From Podarcis cretensis (taxonomy: Eukaryota), in assembly GCA_951804945.1 (NCBI GenBank), contig OX638161.1, positions 36,456,001 through 36,520,000 on the forward strand: 64,000 nucleotides of DNA, given 5' to 3'. A program made the position numbers and the translations under genes. Numbering within the stretch: the stretch's first letter is position 1; each line of letters starts with the position of its first letter. Under the pieces are notes generated by a model. It worked only from the letters and a program-made list of their open reading frames with translations, searched no databases and had not been told where the DNA came from. Below are positions 10,263-50,519 of the stretch, one piece after another.

Positions 10263-10649
10263 GTATAGAGAGAAACAGCCCATGCAATTTTTATGCAGGG
10301 GGCTCAGTGCAAAAAACAAAACCCAAGGGCTCAGGTCCCTAACAACACTTCCTGCCTGATATGCTAGTTTTCTTGGTGCGGAGGTTTATTTATTCAATTT
10401 GTGTGTGTAAAGAAGAAAGAGGAACAGCCCAGACACAGGTTCATCCACACCTTCTGCTGTTGATGAGAACTAGATCTTAAACCGCCAATCCCAAGCTCTT
10501 TCATCGGTGTGTATGCGTTTGGTGGTCAGAGTCCTCCTGCTCACTAGCTTCTGGTTGTCTGGCCACAGATGTGTCCTCTCAACTCTCATCAGGCCTCCAA
10601 AACACCATGAATAAAGGCTGCCAACCACTTTCGTTTCCCTTCTGTGTAG

Positions 10650-10845
10650 GATAACTGTGGAGAAGCAATCCAAGAGTGAAAAATGTTGGCCGTGGAGGCT
10701 GTTTGACAAGGACAATTCAACGAAGTTGTGCAAGGACAGTTGCCAAGGCATTGTGGACACTGGCACTTCTCTTATCACAGGGTCTAGTGATGAAATCAAA
10801 GAGTTGCAGAAGGCCATTGGGGCTGAACATATCATGGGAGGACAG
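10650..10845 (+). CDS. NAPSA: Aspartic protease exon 7 with the second catalytic Asp (DTGT)
   Basis: tctgtgtag| ... CAG|gtaag; (K)[65 protein letters not shown]; 196 bp. Confidence 0.92.
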
Positions 10846-11724
10846 GTAAGGAAGAGGCAACGTGTCTTGGATCCTTTAAATGACCCATCCAAAACAACAA
10901 CAACACCACCTCCATGCAGAGCCTTCCAAATTAACAAATCCACCCCTTGGTTCTGGTTTCATTGGCTTATTCTCTCTGCTGTCGATCTGTCGGTGTGATA
11001 TCCCATCATACTCGAATGTGACCAGGAAGCAGAACTCAGGCTAGGGTTGTGCACTTGAAGGAGTGAGTTTATGCAGCACCATTTTCAGTGACCAGAGTCA
11101 GCAGAGGCGGGAAGCAGACTTTGTTTCTATTCCAATGGTATACCCAACATTCTTTTGCTTTCTTCCATATGAATTGGAAATCTTACTACAGTATTTTCAC
11201 CTTAAAGTCCTGCACTTAAGAGGCCAGTTTTGCAGTGAGGCCAAAACCTGCCTTCCTTCCCCAACCCTGGGGCTCTTCCTGACCACCTGTTGTTTTTTTT
11301 ATCATTCATCCTGATTTGCTTGCACAAAACTTAGCATGGAGGTCAGACTATGCCTGGTGTTTGTTGAGCATTCTTTCTTGTTTTTTTGCGAGGAGGTTAT
11401 TTGACAAGGAACAGCATCAAACTGGGGTTCCCTCCTTTGCTCCACATCACTGACTGCCATTGGCAGGGAAGGTCGCCCTGTGATGATGCAACACACTGCA
11501 TTTGGCTAAGGAGAGAAGATGCAATCCCAAGGATGCCATTTTCAGAGACAGCTCCTCATCTGCCGTGGAGTCTAGTACCTTCAACTTCTGGCAAAACGCG
11601 GGGGTGGGAGTGAGTGGAGTTTGGGGTAAATGCCCTAGCATAGAAGAGGTGTGTTAAGAGAAGAATGGCTGTCCAGTCTCTTCCCCTTCCCTTCCTCATG
11701 GCACTCTCCCTTTCCCCACCACAG

Positions 11725-17939: not shown

Positions 17940-18420
17940 TTTCATACTGAGTTTTCAAGTGAGGGGTGGCGCATCTTTAAAAACACCCCTCTCTGCTCCC
18001 TGGGTCTCCACAGAGTCCAGGGTGGCTCGCTTTGTTTATGTGTGTCAGGGAAACACGTATATGGCCCCAAACGCACGACCCCGCTCCTTCATCGCCACTT
18101 GTTTACCTCCAATGCCGCGCACAGCGCTTGATGGGAAGCTGCCTCTTAGCAAGCAATTGAGCTGTGGCTGCTCTAATCCTGGACTAGATTTCTTTGCGTA
18201 TATTACTCCCCCCCCCCCAAAAAAAAAGGAAGGAAGGAAGAGCAACTGTTCCATGAGATGCCCCAAAATTCCACCTTAAGAGGCAGTGATGTCATCACGG
18301 GGTCCGCAGTACCAGAAGGCGCAGCCTGCATCCGGAGACCAGGGGTGGGGGGCGGGAGGCAGAGACGCACAAGGTGTGTGTGGGGGGACAGACGGACAGA
18401 CTGACTCCTATTCGTCGACA
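17940..18420 (+). promoter_or_regulatory. Probable distal KCNC3 promoter / TSS region
   Basis: Local CpG enrichment, CRE-like TGATGTCA at about 18287-18294, directly upstream of a consensus splice donor. Confidence 0.45.
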
Positions 18421-18692
18421 TCCTGCATCTTCCTTCCCCCCCACCAAAAAAAGCAAAAAGCTCCCCATCATCCTCTCCATTCTCCCTCTGCTCTCTGCTT
18501 CAAGGGGTTCTCTGTCCCCTCAAGGTGCTGGGGGAGCTTCTTATAGCCTCTGTCTTCGCCTCACTGGTTGATTTTTATTTTTTTTTAAGAATTTTGGTTG
18601 GGGGGAGGTTGGGGGTGAAGATTCCCCCCTCCATCTCTGCTCCTTCATCTCTCTCAAAAATATTATTAAGCCACAAGGGGTTGGTTTGGCAG
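18300..18692 (+). other. KCNC3: Probable non-coding first exon of KCNC3 (5' end uncertain)
   Basis: Consensus donor CAG|GTAAGT at 18692/18693; a strong acceptor upstream of the ATG (polypyrimidine tract plus gcag at 25145-25148) implies an upstream exon. Confidence 0.55.
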
Positions 18693-19138
18693 GTAAGTAT
18701 GGGCCTTCAGTGGCTACATTGTGTGTGTTTGTTTGTTTGTTTGTGTATGTGTGTGTACATCTATAGTGTGTGTTTGTGTGGTGTTTTGTTTTCCCCTGGG
18801 GCGGCAGTGGGGGGGAGGTGAGGGGGAATCATTGAGTGTCCCCTTTTACCTAACACTGAGACCATAGGACAGAAGGAGGGGGGGGGGGAGTTTCAGCACC
18901 TGTGAGGTGACCGGCTGCATGTTAACATTGGTGTGCTTGTATTTTGCTCATTAGTGCCAGCCTAGCTGAGAGAGAGAGAGAGAAAGAGACAGACAGACAG
19001 ACTTGCTTCTGATGGCTATTTGCCTGTCTGGGTGTATGTGTGTGTGTAAGAGAGAAAGATGACTGTCAGTTTGTGGATATTTGTGTGCTGCCCACTGCAG
19101 TGTGTGAATGAGTGAAGGATAGCTTTAAGTGTATATGA

Positions 19139-22361: not shown

Positions 22362-25349
22362 GGTGGGTGTTTGTTTGTTTTTAAAAAGAATAATATGAAT
22401 TTAGAGGGCAAGGGAAATGCAGGCAAAATTAGGTCAGGAGAAATTGTTTGAGAATCTATTTTTTCCTCCACATGTATTTTAAGTCTCTATTATGCACTCA
22501 TGCAAACCCTCCCACATTCTTTCTCTCTCACTAGTTTCTCCTTCCCACTCCACTCCACTTTCCCTACTTCTTCATCTCACAGCCCAGGAAATTGGATGGT
22601 GCGGCAATAGTGCTGGAGAAGAGACATTTACCTCCTCACCTGCCTAAAGCCAAGCCAATTCTCTCTTTTGTACTGAGAAACATTGCACAGACACACAGAC
22701 ACACACAGTCCCCCTCTGCAACGACACAAGAGTACAGGAGAGGGGGGTGTTGGGACTGGGTGAGCTACAGGCCAAGGAGGTTCCTTAGAGATGGCCAAGG
22801 GTTGTAGCCAAAGCTGGTTCTTCTCAGTGCAGACCACTGAAACAAATAGGCATGATTAACTTAGGCCCACGAATTCTAGTAGGTCTGCTCTGAGTACAGC
22901 TAGCACTGGACATACTGGTAATCCCCAGTGTAAAACTTCATGTGCAGGAAAGGGGAGAAGGAAGAACTGGAGGGGAGGATGGATAGGTCAGGGGGGACTA
23001 TAGAGAGGGAAGCAGAGGCCATAAGGAGGAGGAAGTAGCCATGGGGGGAGGGCAAACAGTGGGGCACTGAAATTTCAAGGGATAGCAGGGGATAGAGGGT
23101 GAACTGGGGTGACCCACCAATGGGAGTATAGGAGAGCAACCACAGCTAGGAGGGAGAGAGGAGATTTGGAGGGAGGAACCCCACATGAAAAGTGTGGGTG
23201 CACAGGGGTCAAAAGTCATGTGGGAGAAAGTGGGGGCAAGGAGAAGACTGAAGGGGTCCTAAAGGTGGAGGAGAGCATAGAGGCTACCCAGCCCCTCAGC
23301 TTCAGGAAGATCATCATCAGGGTCCATATAGAAGTCAGCAAGGGAAGCCGGGTCCACTGCAGGAGGCAGGATCTGGCCGAAGATAGGAGGAGGAGCTGAG
23401 AAAGAACCAGAGTCAAGTGGGGCAAGAGTGGGGAGTCATGGGGCAGATAGGTTGCTACCTAGAAGAGAAAAAGGAATTGGTTCGTTAGTGTAAAGGGCGG
23501 GGGGGGGGGAGAGTTGGAGCCCAGCAGGTGCAGCAGTATGGGGAGAGGGCTGGGAGTCGGAAGTGGGGGAAGTGGAAACTGGAGGAGATAGCAAGGAAGG
23601 AGGGAGGGAGGGAGGAAGGGAGGAGGGGGTCAGTGGAGAAGGAAAACTGGCTGGTGGCCAAGAGAGGGAGAGATGAATTGGGAAGCGGTCAATGGCAGCG
23701 GAAGGACAGTGCAGAAGCAGTAGATTGAGCCTCCGTTCGAGAGGAAGGGGACGTTGAAGAAAGGGGGCGAAGTGAAGGAGAAGCAAAAAGAGGGGGGTCT
23801 GGGAAGATGGGGCAGGAGGCAAGGAAGGAGAGAGAGAGAGGGAAGGAAGGGTGGTAGATGGGTGGAACGAGTCGATATAAAAGTGAGCAGGGTGCTAAGA
23901 CTGGGTGGGTAGTTCTCCTGGTGAAAGAGATGGGGAGAGGGGACAGAAGAGGCCCCTGAATGAGAAGAAGTGGCATTTCTCCTACACGTGAAGCTCAGGC
24001 GAGCATCTATTTTGCCACCGTTACACTTTGAGTGTGGAGATTGCAGAGCTGCTTCCAAACTTAATGTGGTAAAGGGGCAAACTAGGTTTTGCCTGATTTC
24101 TGTGCAATGAGGGAGAAGGAGGCAAGTCTCCGTGCAGGAAAAGTGTTTGTGAAGTGACCCTAGGCTAAGCAGAGGATGGAGGGGGGAAAGGCAGAAGTTC
24201 CCAGGGAAAGAAGGACAGAGATAAGAGAGTAGAGAAGGGAGATGTGGCAACACATGGAAGCGGGGAAGGAGAGGAGACCATGAAGAAGGAAGAAAGGAGA
24301 AGAGGAAGAGGGTTGATGAGGAAGACAAAGTCAGCAGAAGAAAGGAAAGGGGTAGAAGGAGGGAAGGATGTGAGGCTGTGACAGAGAAGAAATGAATGAA
24401 GGGTGAGAATGAATGGAGGACAGAAAAGAGGAGAGAGAGGGAGGCCAGAGAGATGAATGGGTATCCTAGGACTTGGAGATAATGATGGCAGATCTGCATG
24501 GACAGGCACTTGGAGAGGATAATGGTGCGCCAGGGGTAATAGCATGAAGCCTGCAGTGAAGGACTGCCGTGATGGTCCACAGGGGTCGAAAAACGATGGT
24601 GGCAGAGGGCTAAGGAGGGAACTGAAAAAGAGAAGGGGATGCAGAGGGCAGGAGGGAGGGGGAGAGAGAGAGATTGGGGGGGGGGGTAGAAGGAGGGAAG
24701 GCTGTGTGTGAGGATGGAAGAGATGGAGTGGGAGTGACAGAAAGAGGAGAGAGTGATAATGGCAGAGGGATGCAGTGGCAATGCCGGTCATTACGAGAGG
24801 GATGGGAGGAAGGAGAGGAGAGTGGAGAAGCGTACATGGTGGGATGGGGAGGGCGAAGGCGTAACGCAGCAGGGAGCGCGAGTGGCCAAGAAGCGCCATG
24901 GAGGGAGCGAGAGGAAGAAGGGGTGAGGATGGCAGGGGCCACGGGGCGCGGACAATGGAAAGGACGGCGGTCCGAGCGGAGTGTCGGCGTGCGGATGGAT
25001 GGATGGTGGGACGGGAGCAATGGAGGGCAGCGAGCGGAGGGAGCGCGGCCGAGGCTGCGGAGGACTGTGGCGGAGCAGCCGTCCGCACTCACCTTCCCTG
25101 TCCCTTTCTCTCTCTCTCTCTCTCTCTTTCTGTCCCTCTCTTTCGCAGACCCCGGCGCCGCGCCGCGGGCTCTTTCTCTGCCAACTCCTGCCTCCTCCTC
25201 CTGCTGCTGCTGCTGCTGCTGCGCCCGCCCCGTCTAGAAAGAGCCTCGCCCCCCTTCCCTCTTGGCCGCGCTCCCTCCTGCCTTCTCCTTTCCCCGCGGC
25301 AGGAGGGGTGGGGGGAGAGGGGGTGGGCCGAGGAGGAGGAGGGGCCAGG

Positions 25350-25373
25350 ATGACGCCTCGCGCCCTGATTTGA
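25350..25373 (+). other. uORF MTPRALI* in the KCNC3 5'UTR
   Basis: ccaggATGA (A at -3); TGA at 25371-25373; ends 49 nt before the main ATG. Confidence 0.6.
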
Positions 25374-25422
25374 CACCTGCGCACCGTCGGGGGGCGGCCC
25401 CCCGCCTCGGCCCGCGCCGCCG

Positions 25423-26022
25423 ATGCTGAGCTCAGTGTGCGTCTCCTCTTTCCGCGGGCGCAAGTCTGGGAACAAGCCGCCGTCCAAGTCATGTTTGAAA
25501 GGGGAGATGGGCCGGAACGAAGACAACGACAAGATAGTCATCAACGTGGGCGGCATCCGGCATGAGACGTACCGCAGCACCCTCAAGACCCTGCCGGGCA
25601 CGCGGCTGTCGTGGCTCACCGAGCCCGACGCCTGCAGCAACTTCGACTACGACCCCAAGGCCGACGAGTTCTTCTTCGACCGGCACCCGCAGGTCTTCGC
25701 CTACGTGCTCAACTACTACCGCACGGGGAAGCTGCACTGCCCGGCCGACGTGTGCGGGCCCCTCTTCGAGGAGGAGCTGGCCTTCTGGGGCATCGACGAG
25801 ACCGACGTGGAAGCCTGCTGCTGGATGAACTACCGGCAGCACCGCGACGCCGAGGAGGCCCTCGACAGCTTCGAGGCGCCCGAGAGCCAGGACGATGAGG
25901 AGAGCGGAGACCTCAAGCGCCACTGCCTGCAGGAGGACGGGCGCAAGCTGGGCCGGTGGGCCGCCATGCAGCCCAAGGTGTGGGCGCTCTTCGAGGACCC
26001 CTACTCCTCCAGGATGGCCAGG
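25423..26022 (+). CDS. KCNC3: Kv3.3 coding exon 1: N-terminal inactivation peptide and T1/BTB domain (exon probably begins at 25149)
   Basis: [13 protein letters not shown] start; [20 protein letters not shown] and the Kv3 zinc motif HCPADVC...CC; 200 codons; AGG|gtgagt donor. Confidence 0.95.
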
Positions 26023-29000
26023 GTGAGTAGTGCGGGGCTGGGGGCTTGGGGCACCCACCCGCTCACCTAGATGCTTCCTCGGGCTCACCTCATGTGGGCA
26101 GCATGGAGGAGCAGGATAGAGATACCTATGGCTGCTGCTGCTGCTGCTATTGCTGTTAGCATCGTGACTACTAGCATTGACGCTCTTGTCCCCACTAGTG
26201 GCACAGGGGAAGGCAAGCAGGGGAGCGGGGAGGCAGGGTCCCTGCCCCAAGGAACTTACAGATCTAAATGTTGACAAGAGGAGTCAGGGGAGAGTAGCAG
26301 AATAGGGGCAAGCATAGTTAAGGCTGGCAGAAGTTAATCCCACTCTGTTCATTGGGGCTTATTGCCAAGGAAGTGCAGAAAGGTTTGAGGGCAGCCTTGG
26401 TTTGTGTAGGGGAGAGGAGAGGCGAGCATCCTAGCTTTTCTCTCCCTCCCTTACACTGAGTCAGGTCCCAGGTGCATTTAGCCCAGAATGACTACTCCGA
26501 CAGGAGATGGCTTTGCAAGGTCTCAGGCTGCTACTTTTCACTTGGAGAGGGAAAAATTAAAGCTGGGAACATCTGAGTCCAAAGCATGAACTCTGCCTCC
26601 CTGAACTGAGTTCATTCTCCCAGTCTCTGGTTATGGCTGGAGGTGGGACAGAGTAAGCAAGAGAAATTTCTCTTTAAATGTTCTTTTGCTTGTTTCGCAA
26701 TTGTCCCTTGGCTCTGTTCAACAGGAGGCCTTCTAGCCTTCTTCTTTGCTGTAAACCCTGACAACTTCCCAAAGAAACCTCCCCCCCCCAAAAAAAATGT
26801 ACTTTTAAGAGAAAGGGGTGCAAGGCAGGTGGAAAAGGTGAGATGTAAAAGGTCAAGAGTGGAGGTGCAGGCTAATGTTGGAGGTGCAGTTGAGATGTGC
26901 AAGACTTGTCCCAAGCGAAATGGGCAATGGCACAATGCGCAGACTAGCGCAGAGGGACTGGTGTGCAAGGGTCCATGTGCAATGCTTGGTAAGCATGGAT
27001 GGATGTGGAAATGTGGGGGGGGGAGAGAAGGATGTGTGAGTGGCACTGGGTGCTGGAGGTGAAGGCAGATTATGCAGTAGAAAAGATGAGGTTGCCAGTC
27101 TGAGTGTGCAAACAGAACAGACTGAGAAATGGAGATGTTCTGCAGGCAGGGATGTTTTTCAGGAGCTGATGGCACCAGTCACATCTTAGGCACACACAAG
27201 CGATGTGCACCGTACACTGAAGTGCCCTGTAGAGAGAACATATACAGTAATAAGTCAGATACTGCAAACAGACATCTAGAGGAAGGAATGGTTGGCTGGG
27301 AGAATACAGAATGTGGAGCGGAGAATGGTGCAGGTTTCAGAGGTGTCGCAAGGGCAATGGAAGAGGTGCACTCAGCCATGTCGAGGCATGCAAAATGTTA
27401 CAGAAAATAGGAGAAGTTAATGTGCAGGCTAAGAGGGGGTGACTGAATGAGCCTGAATGATAGAGAGGGGCAGTGATTCCGGTTCAGGGAAAGCGTGCAA
27501 GAGACCCAAGTGTGAGAAATGGAACTCTAAGGAGAAAGGAGCATGAGGAAAGGAAGGGGGATCATGCAAGGAATGCTGCTGGTGGAAGTGAAAACGGGGT
27601 GCAAGAAAAAAAAGTTGAGCTCAAGAGTTGAGCACCACGGGACACGAGCGTGCGAATGAGTGTAGTAGTGTGTAGCAGCAGGAGGATCCAGACACGCATG
27701 CGCTGGGCTTATGACTTGCTTATCGGTGTCAGGGTGAATGCCTTGATCTCCAGCAGGAGGTGCTGCTAAAACAGCTCCAAGTCCTTTCTTCACTGTCCCC
27801 CAAAATAAGGTCCCCTGTCCTCCTCCTCTCTGGTCTCCACCATCCCCTCCACACACAGTTTATCTCAGGTCTCACTTGTGCCCTTCCTGAATTTTGGAAT
27901 CCTCTGGTCTCACTGCAGTTTTGCGTAGTCCCCCCGCCCCCACTGCATGCCCCACTGCCAAATCTAGGGATCTTTCCTTTTCTCTCCATTCAGCCCAAAT
28001 CGACATCATCTATCCAGGGAGAAACTCCAGATCTCCTCCCCCAATCTTCAGCAATGCAGTTCTGAATTGGCTCCCCCCCCCCTTCCCAGTGTGCTTGAAT
28101 AATGCTGCTCAAAACTGCCCCCTTCCCAGACACTGCAGTTTAGAATCCCCCATCCTGCACTGCACCCCCAAATATCGCTCTCCTTACTGCATCCCCCCGT
28201 TCTTTTCCCCTTTTCTTTTTTTAGCCTATGCAGCTAAAGCCTTTCCTTAGGTAAAGCACTGTATAACTTCTTTTTGCAGAGCAGCTGAAAGGGGGGGGGG
28301 GTTAATGAAAGTCTGCTGCTTGTTCTCTCTCTCCTTCCCCCCCCCACCCCCGGCAACCCCTCCAGTATTACCTCTAGGACAATATTAGTGCTTTGCTATC
28401 TCTAGAACTGCAGAGCCAGCGGGTTGAGAAGGGGGGGAGGGGGCACCGCAGTGCAGTGTGGAAGCCCCAGAGTTTGCAGTGCAAAGCCGGCATTCTGCAA
28501 TCCATTCCCCCTCCCCTCGCCCCAGGCAGCTGCTCTCAAGGGTGCAAGGCCTGTCCGGTCCCTTTATTCAGCCCCCCCTTCCTCCCCCATGCAGTTGGGA
28601 ATGCAGCCAGAAAAAAGTTACAGCAGGGAGGAAGAGAGGGCAGGAGTGTTGGGGAGCAGGAAAGGGAGGGGGTTTGCTGGCAGTGGGAGCCAAGAAACCA
28701 ACGGGACTATGAGGCAATGCTGCATTCAGGTGGACAGCACGTCAGGGATTCCATAAACAGAGGAGCTGGTTGAGAACTGAAGCCAGCATCTCCCCACTAG
28801 CAGCCGATATAACGGTGGCTCCCCACTTTATGCATTTACAGAAATGGCATATGTATGCTATAACTACAGTAGCGCCCCCCCCCCCGCAACCTTCTCTCTT
28901 TGGGCATTTGTGTATGAATAAGAGAAAGACGCAAATCAGTACTGAAGTTTGCAAAGTTGGGGGGGGGAGTTGAGGTTCATGCCCCAAGCACAGTGTTTGA

Positions 29001-40237: not shown

Positions 40238-41171
40238 TATGTGGCCTTTGCCTCGCTCTTCTTCATCCTCATCTCCATCACCACCTTCTGCCTGGAGACC
40301 CACGAGGCTTTCAACCACATCACAAACAAGACAGAGGTCATACAGTCAGAGAACGGCACCACCGTAAAGGTGGACTTTGAGATGGAGACGGAGCCATTCC
40401 TCACCTACGTGGAAGGGATGTGTGTCATCTGGTTTACCTTTGAGTTCCTCATGCGTGTCATCTTTTGCCCAGACAAGTTGGAGTTCATCAAGAGCACCCT
40501 CAACATCATCGACTTTGTGGCCATCCTGCCCTTCTACCTGGAAGTGGGCCTCAGTGGCCTCTCGTCCAAAGCGGCCAAGGATGTGCTGGGCTTCCTGAGG
40601 GTGGTAAGATTTGTCCGGATCCTAAGGATCTTCAAGCTGACAAGGCATTTCGTAGGGCTGAGAGTCCTAGGCCACACATTGAGAGCCAGTACCAATGAGT
40701 TCTTGCTCCTCATCATCTTCCTGGCCCTGGGGGTCTTGATCTTTGCCACCATGATCTACTACGCCGAAAGGATCGGGGCTGACCCAGACGACATCACAGG
40801 CAGCAAGCACACCACCTTCAAGAACATCCCTATTGGGTTCTGGTGGGCGGTGGTCACCATGACGACTTTGGGCTACGGTGACATGTACCCCGAGACCTGG
40901 TCAGGCATGTTGGTGGGAGCACTGTGCGCCTTGGCTGGCGTGCTGACCATTGCCATGCCCGTGCCCGTCATCGTCAACAACTTTGGCATGTATTATTCGC
41001 TGGCCATGGCCAAGCAGAAACTACCAAAGAAAAAGAACAAGCACATCCCACGAGCCCCTCAGCCTGGGTCGCCCAACTACTGCAAACCGGACATGCAGTC
41101 CCCACATCGCAGCAACCAGGGTGACTCATGCCCCCTTGCTCAAGAGGAGATCATCGAGATCAACAGGGCAG
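40238..41171 (+). CDS. KCNC3: Kv3.3 coding exon 2: S1-S6, pore and proximal C-terminus
   Basis: tctccag|TAT; S4 [20 protein letters not shown], selectivity filter [14 protein letters not shown] gate; GCA G|gtaag phase-1 donor. Confidence 0.97.
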
Positions 41172-41736
41172 GTAAGGTGGGGGTGGGAAACACCCTGAGG
41201 GCAGAAATGGCTAAAAATGCAAACTGTTTGCATAAACAGTCTCCTAATCTGGCAGCTTTCCTAAACTTTCTTCCATCTGGGTTCCTCTTTCCACACTGAG
41301 TTACATGCTGAGGAACTGCTGTTAGGAGGTTGCCCCAGAGCCTATGCACACTGAAGAGGATTCTTGGGCATCTTAGAGAGTGCGGTCTCATTGTTCCCCT
41401 CCATGTGAAACTGAGAGTTACCCTTAGAATGCATCCTGTACACCTCTTTGCACTGCAGAGGAAGGTTGGTAGTCTTGGGCAAGCTGTCCTTCAGGAAAGC
41501 TTGTCCATAGCTCATTTGCTTAATTATTATTTTTTTTTAAAAAAATAAACTGTTCTGCTGTAAGCCACTTGTGTAAAAAAGGACAAACAAATTTAAGTAA
41601 TAAAAAAAATAATAATAAAATGAATAAAATACTTCCAGGCCTCCTTTCCAGGTCTTGCTGAACCTCAATTTCCTTGCCCTATGCATCCCACAGCTGTCTC
41701 CATATGGTAGGTTAGGATTCCAGCACCCTCCCTGAG

Positions 41737-48262: not shown

Positions 48263-50013
48263 AGGAGCTTATCAGATGACTGGGTTTGGGGTGGATGAAC
48301 TGTGTTCAATACACATGCAGGTGTTGATTATTAGTTGCACAGGATTCTTCCAGAAATCTTTAAAAAAACCCCAAAACATTATTTGTTTCAGCACATGATT
48401 TTGCCAGCACTCAAACACCATTATTGTGATATTGGGAACATGCGATTTTTCCATCTATAGTGTGTGAAATTTGATTGTGCAGTGTAATAGGAACCTGATG
48501 GATAAGTTTGCCTGTGACACCACTAGTGTGAAAGACACATCACCTTCAATAGTTTCCCATGACCTTTCTGAAATTTTGTTTTTAATGTCATTTTTTTGAA
48601 ATTAAAGGCTGCACCATGCCAGCAAGGGAGTGTTTCGGTCCTTTACTTTGTATGCAGTAAAGCTCCCTCCGGTCTGCAATATTGTTCCACAATTTCATGA
48701 AGCCTTTTTCTCTCAGAAAAACTGTTCTCTGCAGGGGCAACCCTGTCCCCCTTTCTAGAATAATTGCCTCACAAGATAAGATATAATTATCTATGTTAAC
48801 CTACAACAACGTCACCAATTCTACTGATCAAATGATAGGCGTCGTTATCAGAGGGGGAGAACTTCCCTTCTCAAAGTTGTTTGATCAAAACTGAGAGGCT
48901 TGATATGGAGCATTATCTTAAATGAGGACAACAAAGATGCTTTTATTAAGGGATAGCAGCTCTTGATATTCACATATCAAAAGGCCATCACAAAATGGAT
49001 ATTATTTCAGACTATTGTAGCTCTAGGAATGAAAACCTAAAAAAAACCCCTCCAAACCCAAATGTTCTTTATCTGTACATTTTTACTTGGTAGCCACAAC
49101 AAGTGTATGAGCTACTTACTATGTTTTCAGTTTGATTAATGAACTGTGCTAAAAATAAATAATGCCATTTTGTAGCTGCTTTCTTTCAGAACACTTCTGC
49201 ACTTCGCATTTATTTAATCTATGATTTTCTTCACAGAACCTGAGAAATGTTTTGTAAGAGGTTCCTAGTTCTTCCACATAATACAACTCTCAAGTTTCCC
49301 TTAAGGAGGGAATCACTACTCCTATCACAAGCGACACTCCACATATTACAAGAATCCTCATAATCACATGTTAACATAGACAACAGTTTCTTCTTTTTAC
49401 CCATTTGCTTGAGCAAATCTTAATGTGAGTACAAAAGGGTAGCGAAATAGGTAATCAATTTACATCAACTGATAATATAATAATAGCAAGTGGAGGAAAG
49501 TCCAAAGTTCATTTTCTCAGAAAGGTTTAGCTGACCCGAAGTTTTCAAAACAGTTTAAATCTAGCAAGATTTTTTGAAATTTTATTTCTACACTTTGGAC
49601 ATTGATCATCATTTATATATTTTAAGGCAATTATGCAAAGCATCAACTTGCTCAATTCAGTAATGTACATCTGATTTGCAGAGTACATATTTTAAAAACT
49701 TACAGCAGCATTCATTAAGATTAAATGGTGTAAAGTATTCCTGCTAGAAGAATATTGATTTGATTACAGACAGGCAAATTTGTGTTTGCCTAAGAATTTG
49801 CTCCACCCACCTACACTCCCAAAAAATATTTGTTGTATCTCAGGATGGGAAAGGTAGCTAGGTGGTTGTTTTGTTTTTTGTCTGTTTTTTGAGCTGGGAA
49901 TTCTGAGGAAGGTGCAATGGTACTATTGAAAAGCCAGGAGTCTGAGGTTTCTTCTTACTTCTGCATCACTTCTCTTTTTTCCAATCTCACCCCTTTCCCT
50001 TATCCGTTCACAG

Positions 50014-50208
50014 ATTCCAAGCAGAATGGTGATGCAGCAAATGCAGCGTTGGCTAATGAGGACTGCCCCACCATAGACCAGGCCCTGTCACCTGAGGAGA
50101 AGTCACCTGTCACACCTGGCGGTCGGGAACGCTACAACCGTGACCGAGCCTGCTTTCTCCTCTCCACAGGTGACTTTGGTCAGTCACCTGATGGGAACAT
50201 CCGAAAAG
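50014..50208 (+). CDS. KCNC3: Kv3.3 coding exon 3
   Basis: ttcacag| ... G|gtacat; [65 protein letters not shown] matches the Kv3.3-type C-terminus. Confidence 0.95.
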
Positions 50209-50519
50209 GTACATACATGTGCATAATTTTTGCCCTGCCTCTTTCTCAAGACAATCTAAACAAGTAGTCCAAGTACAACATCTCCCTTCCCCACATCACC
50301 ACCACCTCCATAACCCTTGTCATAGCAAAACCTCAAATTGTCACATTTCTGAGGTAAAAAAAGGCAACTGCTAATGTGTACTTTGTTTAAATATAACCCT
50401 GTCATGAGGGTTAAAAGGTCATGACAAATTAAAATGAGGCAGATGATGCCCTAGCAACTGGAAGGCCTCAACTTGCCCATCTTTGCTACCATAGCAACAG
50501 CATCCATTGTTCCAAGAAC

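Follow-up and report, generated by a model that had tools for sequence, protein, structure and literature searches.

Alternative Initiation of Kv3.3 and Related Systems

The channel Kv3.3, encoded by KCNC3, is made from two start codons (PMC2151556, PMC9110028, PMC11480015, PMC2933717). As described by Fernandez et al. 2003 (via PMC2151556, PMC9110028, and PMC11480015), a weak first AUG is followed by an in-frame second Met located after the inactivation ball. In zebrafish Kv3.3, mutation of the first ATG abolishes fast inactivation through loss of the ball, and mixed channels show intermediate inactivation kinetics (PMC2933717). In this report, we describe KCNC3 in a 64,000-nt stretch of DNA from the squamate Podarcis cretensis (contig OX638161.1, positions 36,456,001 to 36,520,000 of the forward strand). 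This whole stretch is called the window, and positions are counted from its first letter on the + strand. The window gene resembles the systems above in its weak Met1 and its second start, Met29. In addition, a strong out-of-frame ATG lies between the two and is predicted to capture most of the ribosomes that leak past Met1. An earlier note on this DNA had proposed a stress-driven switch between the two starts. Because the layout of weak Met1 and strong second Met is already published for Kv3.3, the core of that note is not new. What the predicted out-of-frame gatekeeper adds to the known arrangement is modest and can be tested.

The window gene also differs from the published cases. The second Met of mammalian Kv3.3 is M77, whereas that of the squamate gene is M29. 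The available passages on Kv3.3 describe no upstream open reading frame (uORF), G-quadruplex (G4), stress input, or intervening out-of-frame AUG, while the window gene has a uORF, a G-run, and an out-of-frame ATG. Our literature search, which mostly covered papers readable without subscription, found nothing on a control of Kv3.3 starts by a uORF, by stress, or by an out-of-frame AUG. Among papers on Kv3.4/KCNC4 start codons, no out-of-frame AUG appeared in titles or the beginnings of abstracts, and papers on Kv3.3 and the integrated stress response, judged by their listing, contained nothing on start choice.

Human KCNC4, a paralogue, has a weak Met1 and a strong second start 84 nt downstream, like the window gene. 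Its predicted ratio of 0.58 is purely in silico, and the available passages do not mention an intervening AUG (PMC4299517 Table S4). Mouse Kv1.7 belongs to a different subfamily, and its long and short isoforms likewise arise from two starts and differ in inactivation (PMC2151556). In the delayed reinitiation of ATF4 and GCN4, a short uORF precedes an out-of-frame ORF that overlaps the downstream start (PMC5972666), and the window has the same order of elements. Unlike ATF4 and GCN4, however, the window gene, known here from its sequence, has its inhibitory ATG just 16 nt before the start to be induced. Because of this short distance, little late loading of the ternary complex would be expected. 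The C/EBP LAP/LIP system follows the same logic of a short uORF and an out-of-frame ORF overlapping the downstream start.

The Two Probable In-Frame Starts of Squamate KCNC3

The gene was identified with a tree of the T1 region (51 rows, 231 columns; P0097, without the anchor motif, was omitted). The window gene sits among squamate proteins (96/96) within a 25-row clade (99/99), which also contains the named KCNC3 of turtle, alligator, bichir, and teleost and stands apart from KCNC1, KCNC2, and KCNC4. By this placement the gene is a squamate KCNC3, not a mammalian one; the earlier note had named it KCNC3. The KCNC4 or KCNC1 identity implied by database names is ruled out by the same tree. The source databases label squamate, amphibian, and shark KCNC3 orthologues as KCNC1-like or KCNC4.

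The first coding exon (25423-26022) encodes the ball and the T1 domain and ends at a GTGAGT donor at 26023. Met1 (25423-25425, ccgATGc) has C at both -3 and +4 and a context value of 64, and Met29 (25507-25509, gagATGg) has a value of 98. These values, like those of the uORF ATG (104) and the out-of-frame ATG (111), were read off the dinucleotide matrix in PMC4299517 Table S2, whose fit used mammalian-cell reporter data and which is applied here to a squamate gene. They agree with the weak Met1 and strong Met29 of the earlier note, whose motif positions (25305-25327, 25350-25373, 25423, 25491, and 25507) are all exact. Met1 is weak in all four genes with a DNA context: the window gene, human KCNC3 (66), human KCNC4 (40), and a KCNC4-like paralogue, L001 (46). 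At the Met1 of human KCNC3, the -3 base is likewise C according to a primer sequence given in PMC11595341. In the alignment, Kv3.1-type proteins, the type that was compared, begin where Met29 stands, and this agrees with the proposed match to Kv3.1. Met1 and Met29 likely act as the known alternative-start pair.

Judged by sequence likeness, codons 1-28 (25423-25506) encode an N-type inactivation ball, as the earlier note had assigned. The solved structure of the Kv3.4 gate (PDB 1b4g/1b4i/1ztn) is matched by residues 1-29 with an E-value of 8e-13, and these residues also hit Pfam PF11601. The ball is present in 134 of the 223 retrieved proteins. A second Met follows it in 132 of these (Met29 in 130, Met30 in one, and Met75 in one); the remaining two are one lamprey and one hagfish protein. 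Among 68 distinct N-termini, Met29 is found in 66, Cys24 in 67, and Lys22 in 66, while the commonest residue at positions 25-28 and 30-34 reaches only 35-62%. The residue preceding the second Met is E, D, or A in 132/132, so that -3 is always G, and +4 is G in 91/132.

A shark protein named KCNC1-like, whose grouping with KCNC1 is weak (85/75), retains Met29 and an N-terminus that resembles the ball. A KCNC1-type ORF carries TCLSDAM directly before its start (both are among P0214, P0031, and P0046). Together with the balls of lamprey and hagfish, these sequences hint that the ball is ancestral and that Kv3.1 may have arisen when the second start became fixed.

An Out-of-Frame ATG between the Starts

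The out-of-frame ATG (gtcATGt) opens a 24-codon ORF (25491-25565). The earlier note had it overlapping Met29; the ORF does span Met29, but the codon itself lies 16 nt upstream. With a value of 111 against 98, it outscores Met29. In a scanning model with k = 0.86 from PMC4299517, Met29 has a share of 41% without this ATG and of 3% with it. The earlier note listed the ATG and missed this effect. According to the model, the out-of-frame ATG likely captures most ribosomes leaking past Met1. The stop of its ORF overlaps another out-of-frame ATG, since His47 is CAT in both paralogues and creates ATGA (25562-25565). In the window, this second out-of-frame ATG opens an 88-codon ORF.

The same arrangement is seen in L001, a KCNC4-like exon. 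It was obtained by scanning for the peptide motif at Met1, which yielded two loci in metagenome contigs, 0 in viral contigs, and 0 in genome contigs. The other metagenome locus (L002) was discarded, because its match to the Met1 peptide does not extend into channel sequence. In L001, an ATG stands at the same place (+69); its -3 base is a purine, and it opens an ORF of 24 codons. Four-fold codons ending in A are scarce in the window gene (2/16 in codons 1-28 and 1/73 in codons 29-200), and L001 has 3/13 and 7/81 in the same intervals. Codon 23 ends in A in both paralogues.

Human KCNC4 provides a further hint. The two-site formula reproduces four of four control rows of PMC4299517 Table S4, and for human KCNC4 it gives 1.91 versus the tabulated 0.58. 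One intervening AUG with a value of about 81 reproduces 0.58, and this value is inside the 72-109 range of 24 candidate contexts. We infer from the table that an intervening AUG between the two starts of human KCNC4 is implied.

On balance, the probable explanation is that Met1 and Met29 serve as the known starts, that the out-of-frame ATG takes most of the leaking ribosomes, and that most subunits keep the ball. Ribosomes would leak past the weak Met1, and the stronger ATG 16 nt before Met29 would capture most of them; most subunits would therefore keep the ball. The uORF would chiefly reduce total output, provided that the mRNA contains it. Stress acting through eIF2 would change the share of Met29 by no more than a few-fold, and inactivation under stress would slow somewhat rather than vanish. 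Because the strong out-of-frame ATG would absorb ribosomes, stress is predicted to grade the channel, not to switch it. The identity of the gene, the motifs with their context values, and the conservation of Met29 and the weak Met1 are direct results, from which the division of ribosomes among the ATGs, the part of the gatekeeper, and any influence of stress are inferred.

Several points weigh against this explanation. Direct evidence for the gatekeeper ATG comes from only two DNA sequences, two of two. This ATG requires no more than an A ahead of the codon for Cys24, a residue whose conservation has protein reasons; Cys6 and Cys24 of Kv3.4 are redox-sensitive. In mammalian KCNC3, the second Met is at 75-77, and the geometry is absent. 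The context matrix comes from mammalian cells, and the reinitiation rates in the model are assumed. In yeast, neighbouring AUGs compete within about 17 nt. The text of PMC4299517 describes a two-site model, and the AUG deduced for KCNC4 comes without a position. Finally, some cell lines are reported to use the second start of Kv3.3 substantially (PMC2151556, PMC9110028), so leak-through can be large.

Possible By-Products or a Proposed Ancient Guard of the Ball

It is conceivable, although we hold it doubtful, that only the Met1/Met29 pair matters. The uORF, the G-run, and the out-of-frame ATG would then be by-products of a GC-rich leader and protein constraint, and inactivation in vivo would be tuned by phosphorylation and subunit mixing. 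Dinucleotide shuffles of two candidate leaders are consistent with this. At least one ATG occurs in 599/1000 shuffles of the leader from 25149 and in 810/1000 of that from 25303, and the single upstream ATG is a chance-level event. The G4 pattern occurs in 55/1000 and 272/1000 shuffles, respectively. An unusually stable leader fold was considered and rejected (z = -0.81). Lys22 and Cys24 provide the purine at -3 and the TG of the out-of-frame ATG without selection at the RNA level. In addition, uORFs are common and on average modestly repressive (PMC4890304), and phosphorylation by PKC is cited as another cause of missing inactivation (PMC9110028). On the other hand, codon 23 ends in A in both paralogues although such codons are uncommon, and even an unselected ATG in such a context would intercept ribosomes.

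The G-run itself (GGGG-T-GGGGGG-AGA-GGGGG-T-GGG, 25305-25327) has four G-tracts with short loops. Its G4Hunter-type score is the highest on the + strand of the window (2.88, at a single place), and the G4 pattern occurs 10 times per strand across the window. ViennaRNA predicts for three leader models that the run pairs with C-rich tracts, either upstream ones or those immediately ahead of Met1. The resulting hairpins beat the G4 by 10, 24, and 30 kcal/mol, and the G4 is favoured only in a 51-nt fragment. The G4 of the earlier note therefore stands as a pattern and a top score, but the structure is predicted to lose to hairpins. The G-run is probably either incidental or involved in splicing or structure. 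GGA repeats at 25328-25347, just 5' of the uORF ATG, form a two-tier G4 in the ViennaRNA folds that is distinct from the run.

A broader proposal extends the gatekeeper to the KCNC3 and KCNC4 of vertebrates. An ancient, selected out-of-frame AUG in codons 23-24 would guard the ball by catching ribosomes that leak past the weak Met1, and start-codon stringency, joined in squamates by uORF reinitiation under stress, would act as a rheostat of how many reach Met29. We regard this as speculative and rather improbable. If true, such a translational rheostat could account for the cell-to-cell variation in Kv3.3 and Kv3.4 kinetics.

The Upstream ORF and the Proposed Stress Switch

The earlier note proposed that reinitiation after the uORF skips Met1 when the ternary complex is low, and that stress, with the help of the G4, makes Kv3.3 largely non-inactivating. 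The uORF (MTPRALI and a stop, 25350-25373) has A at -3 and at +4, and its strong context implies that most scanning ribosomes would translate it. Its ATG lies at -73, and it ends 49 nt 5' of Met1. Like the uORFs of ATF4- and C/EBP-type control, it is short, with seven codons, and lies in a context (104) that favours translation. Reinitiation is known to depend on distance and the ternary complex (PMC5972666), and no other G4 candidate on the + strand ranks above the G-run.

The expected effect was modelled with assumed reinitiation of 20-90% and assumed half-distances of reloading of 10-300 nt. With the uORF, the Met29 share is 3-21% under strict scanning, 27-52% when the out-of-frame decoy is half relieved, and 42-65% without the decoy. 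Slower reloading of the ternary complex shifts the ratio towards Met29, from 3% to 17-21% under strict scanning, in the direction that the earlier note had given; in-frame output falls by about half. One ball per tetramer is enough for inactivation. With random assembly, ball-less tetramers would reach at most 0.2% under strict scanning, 7% with the decoy half relieved, and 18% even without the decoy. With the spacing in the window, low ternary complex would not change the class of output in the model, with 0.2-7% ball-less tetramers at most under the assumed rates. The stronger out-of-frame ATG is predicted to absorb most of the bypassing ribosomes, and the modelled ball-less tetramers stay few. 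The earlier note was thus right in direction, but the effect it called a switch is of the size of a dimmer.

Conservation was examined in fish-type gene models, which make the test partial. Eleven KCNC3-type models have in-frame extensions upstream of Met1, of which 10 reach -73. An out-of-frame ATG between -50 and -90 is impossible in seven of the 10 (two of the seven reach only -78 and -87) and possible in three. An in-frame ATG at -66 to -87 without a stop is present in 5/11. The 371-nt leader of L001 contains no ATG and no G4. For human KCNC3, two described upstream ORFs lie outside the transcript and do not alter reporter output; the leader is 295 nt in a single exon, and the available passages do not state whether it is free of ATG (PMC11595341). 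Conservation of the uORF, which the earlier note had named as a check, finds no support in these three sources. KCNC2 and KCNC4 are among the predicted eIF2-alpha-responsive genes of PMC12303066, whose main text has 0 mentions of KCNC3. Given the few ball-less tetramers, the halved output, and the chance-level ATG, a stress switch built on the uORF and the G4 is not supported, and we judge it unlikely.

Leader Extent and RNA Processing

The leader and the first coding exon are covered by a CpG island (24501-26000; CpG o/e 0.76-0.94, GC 0.60-0.69), a possible promoter, whose three 500-nt bins are alone in the window in exceeding 0.55. Candidate splice sites lie upstream. A strong acceptor-like site (25088-25148, exon start 25149) has a CTCAC branch-like motif at -58, a long pyrimidine tract, and CAG, and its AG-free zone is 68 nt, versus 69 nt at the real acceptor of exon 2. 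A weaker candidate (25245-25302, exon start 25303) is a C/T-rich tract ending in CAG that is a predicted pairing partner of the G-run; it lacks both a YTNAY and any A within 60 nt. The uORF is inside the exon under both of these predicted acceptors. Within ball codons V7-F10 (25437-25465), a pyrimidine tract followed by AAG resembles an acceptor between Met1 and Met29, and splicing to this site would remove Met1. Farther upstream, a candidate non-coding exon (18290-18691, with a guessed start) precedes the consensus donor cag|GTAAGTA at 18692 and has 0 ATG in 402 nt versus 4.0 expected. The interval 18240-18698, 6.5 kb 5' of the 25149 acceptor, is a candidate non-coding exon or promoter with the motif TGATGTCA. 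Over 23001-25000, the 2 kb before the leader, the + strand is strongly skewed towards purines, with values of 0.53-0.57 for the GC skew and about 0.4 for the AT skew.

That RNA processing decides, with alternative promoters or acceptors (25149, 25303, 25465) setting the mRNA elements and even Met1 and with the G-run as a splicing element, is improbable: three acceptor-like sites, a donor closing an ATG-free stretch, a G-run that begins 2 nt past the 25303 site and is predicted to pair with its pyrimidine tract, the reported enrichment of G4 motifs near splice junctions (PMC9065059), and fish models that agree over about 20 in-frame codons ahead of Met1 but diverge farther up, as expected of a splice junction, speak for it, but the 25303 site lacks a branch A, the 25465 site is an AAG that lies within conserved coding sequence and has an AG-free zone of 27 nt, the CpG island and the single-exon human leader (PMC11595341) fit a local start site, and either upstream acceptor leaves the uORF in the leader.

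Other Features of the Window

The second coding exon (S1-S6, 40238-41227) matches squamate orthologues at 91% by tblastn and has an acceptor; its end at 41227 is the end of the alignment and runs past the true donor. The third coding exon (proximal C-terminus) lies approximately at 50013-50210 by tblastn. Upstream of KCNC3 and on the same strand, an aspartic-protease exon (10615-10998) has its best hits to cathepsin D/E and is a candidate napsin exon. Napsin is the upstream neighbour of human KCNC3, and the aspartic-protease exon would fit that order.

Implications for Kv3 Channels

The inactivation of Kv3.3 and Kv3.4 differs between cells and expression systems (PMC6710402), and native Kv3.3 currents are frequently non-inactivating (PMC9110028). 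A stress switch made of the uORF and the G4 would matter more if true, but the evidence leaves it no more than a possibility. With the out-of-frame gatekeeper, one silent change removes the AUG that is predicted to control the amount of ball-less subunits, and codon-optimised cDNAs could lose it unnoticed.

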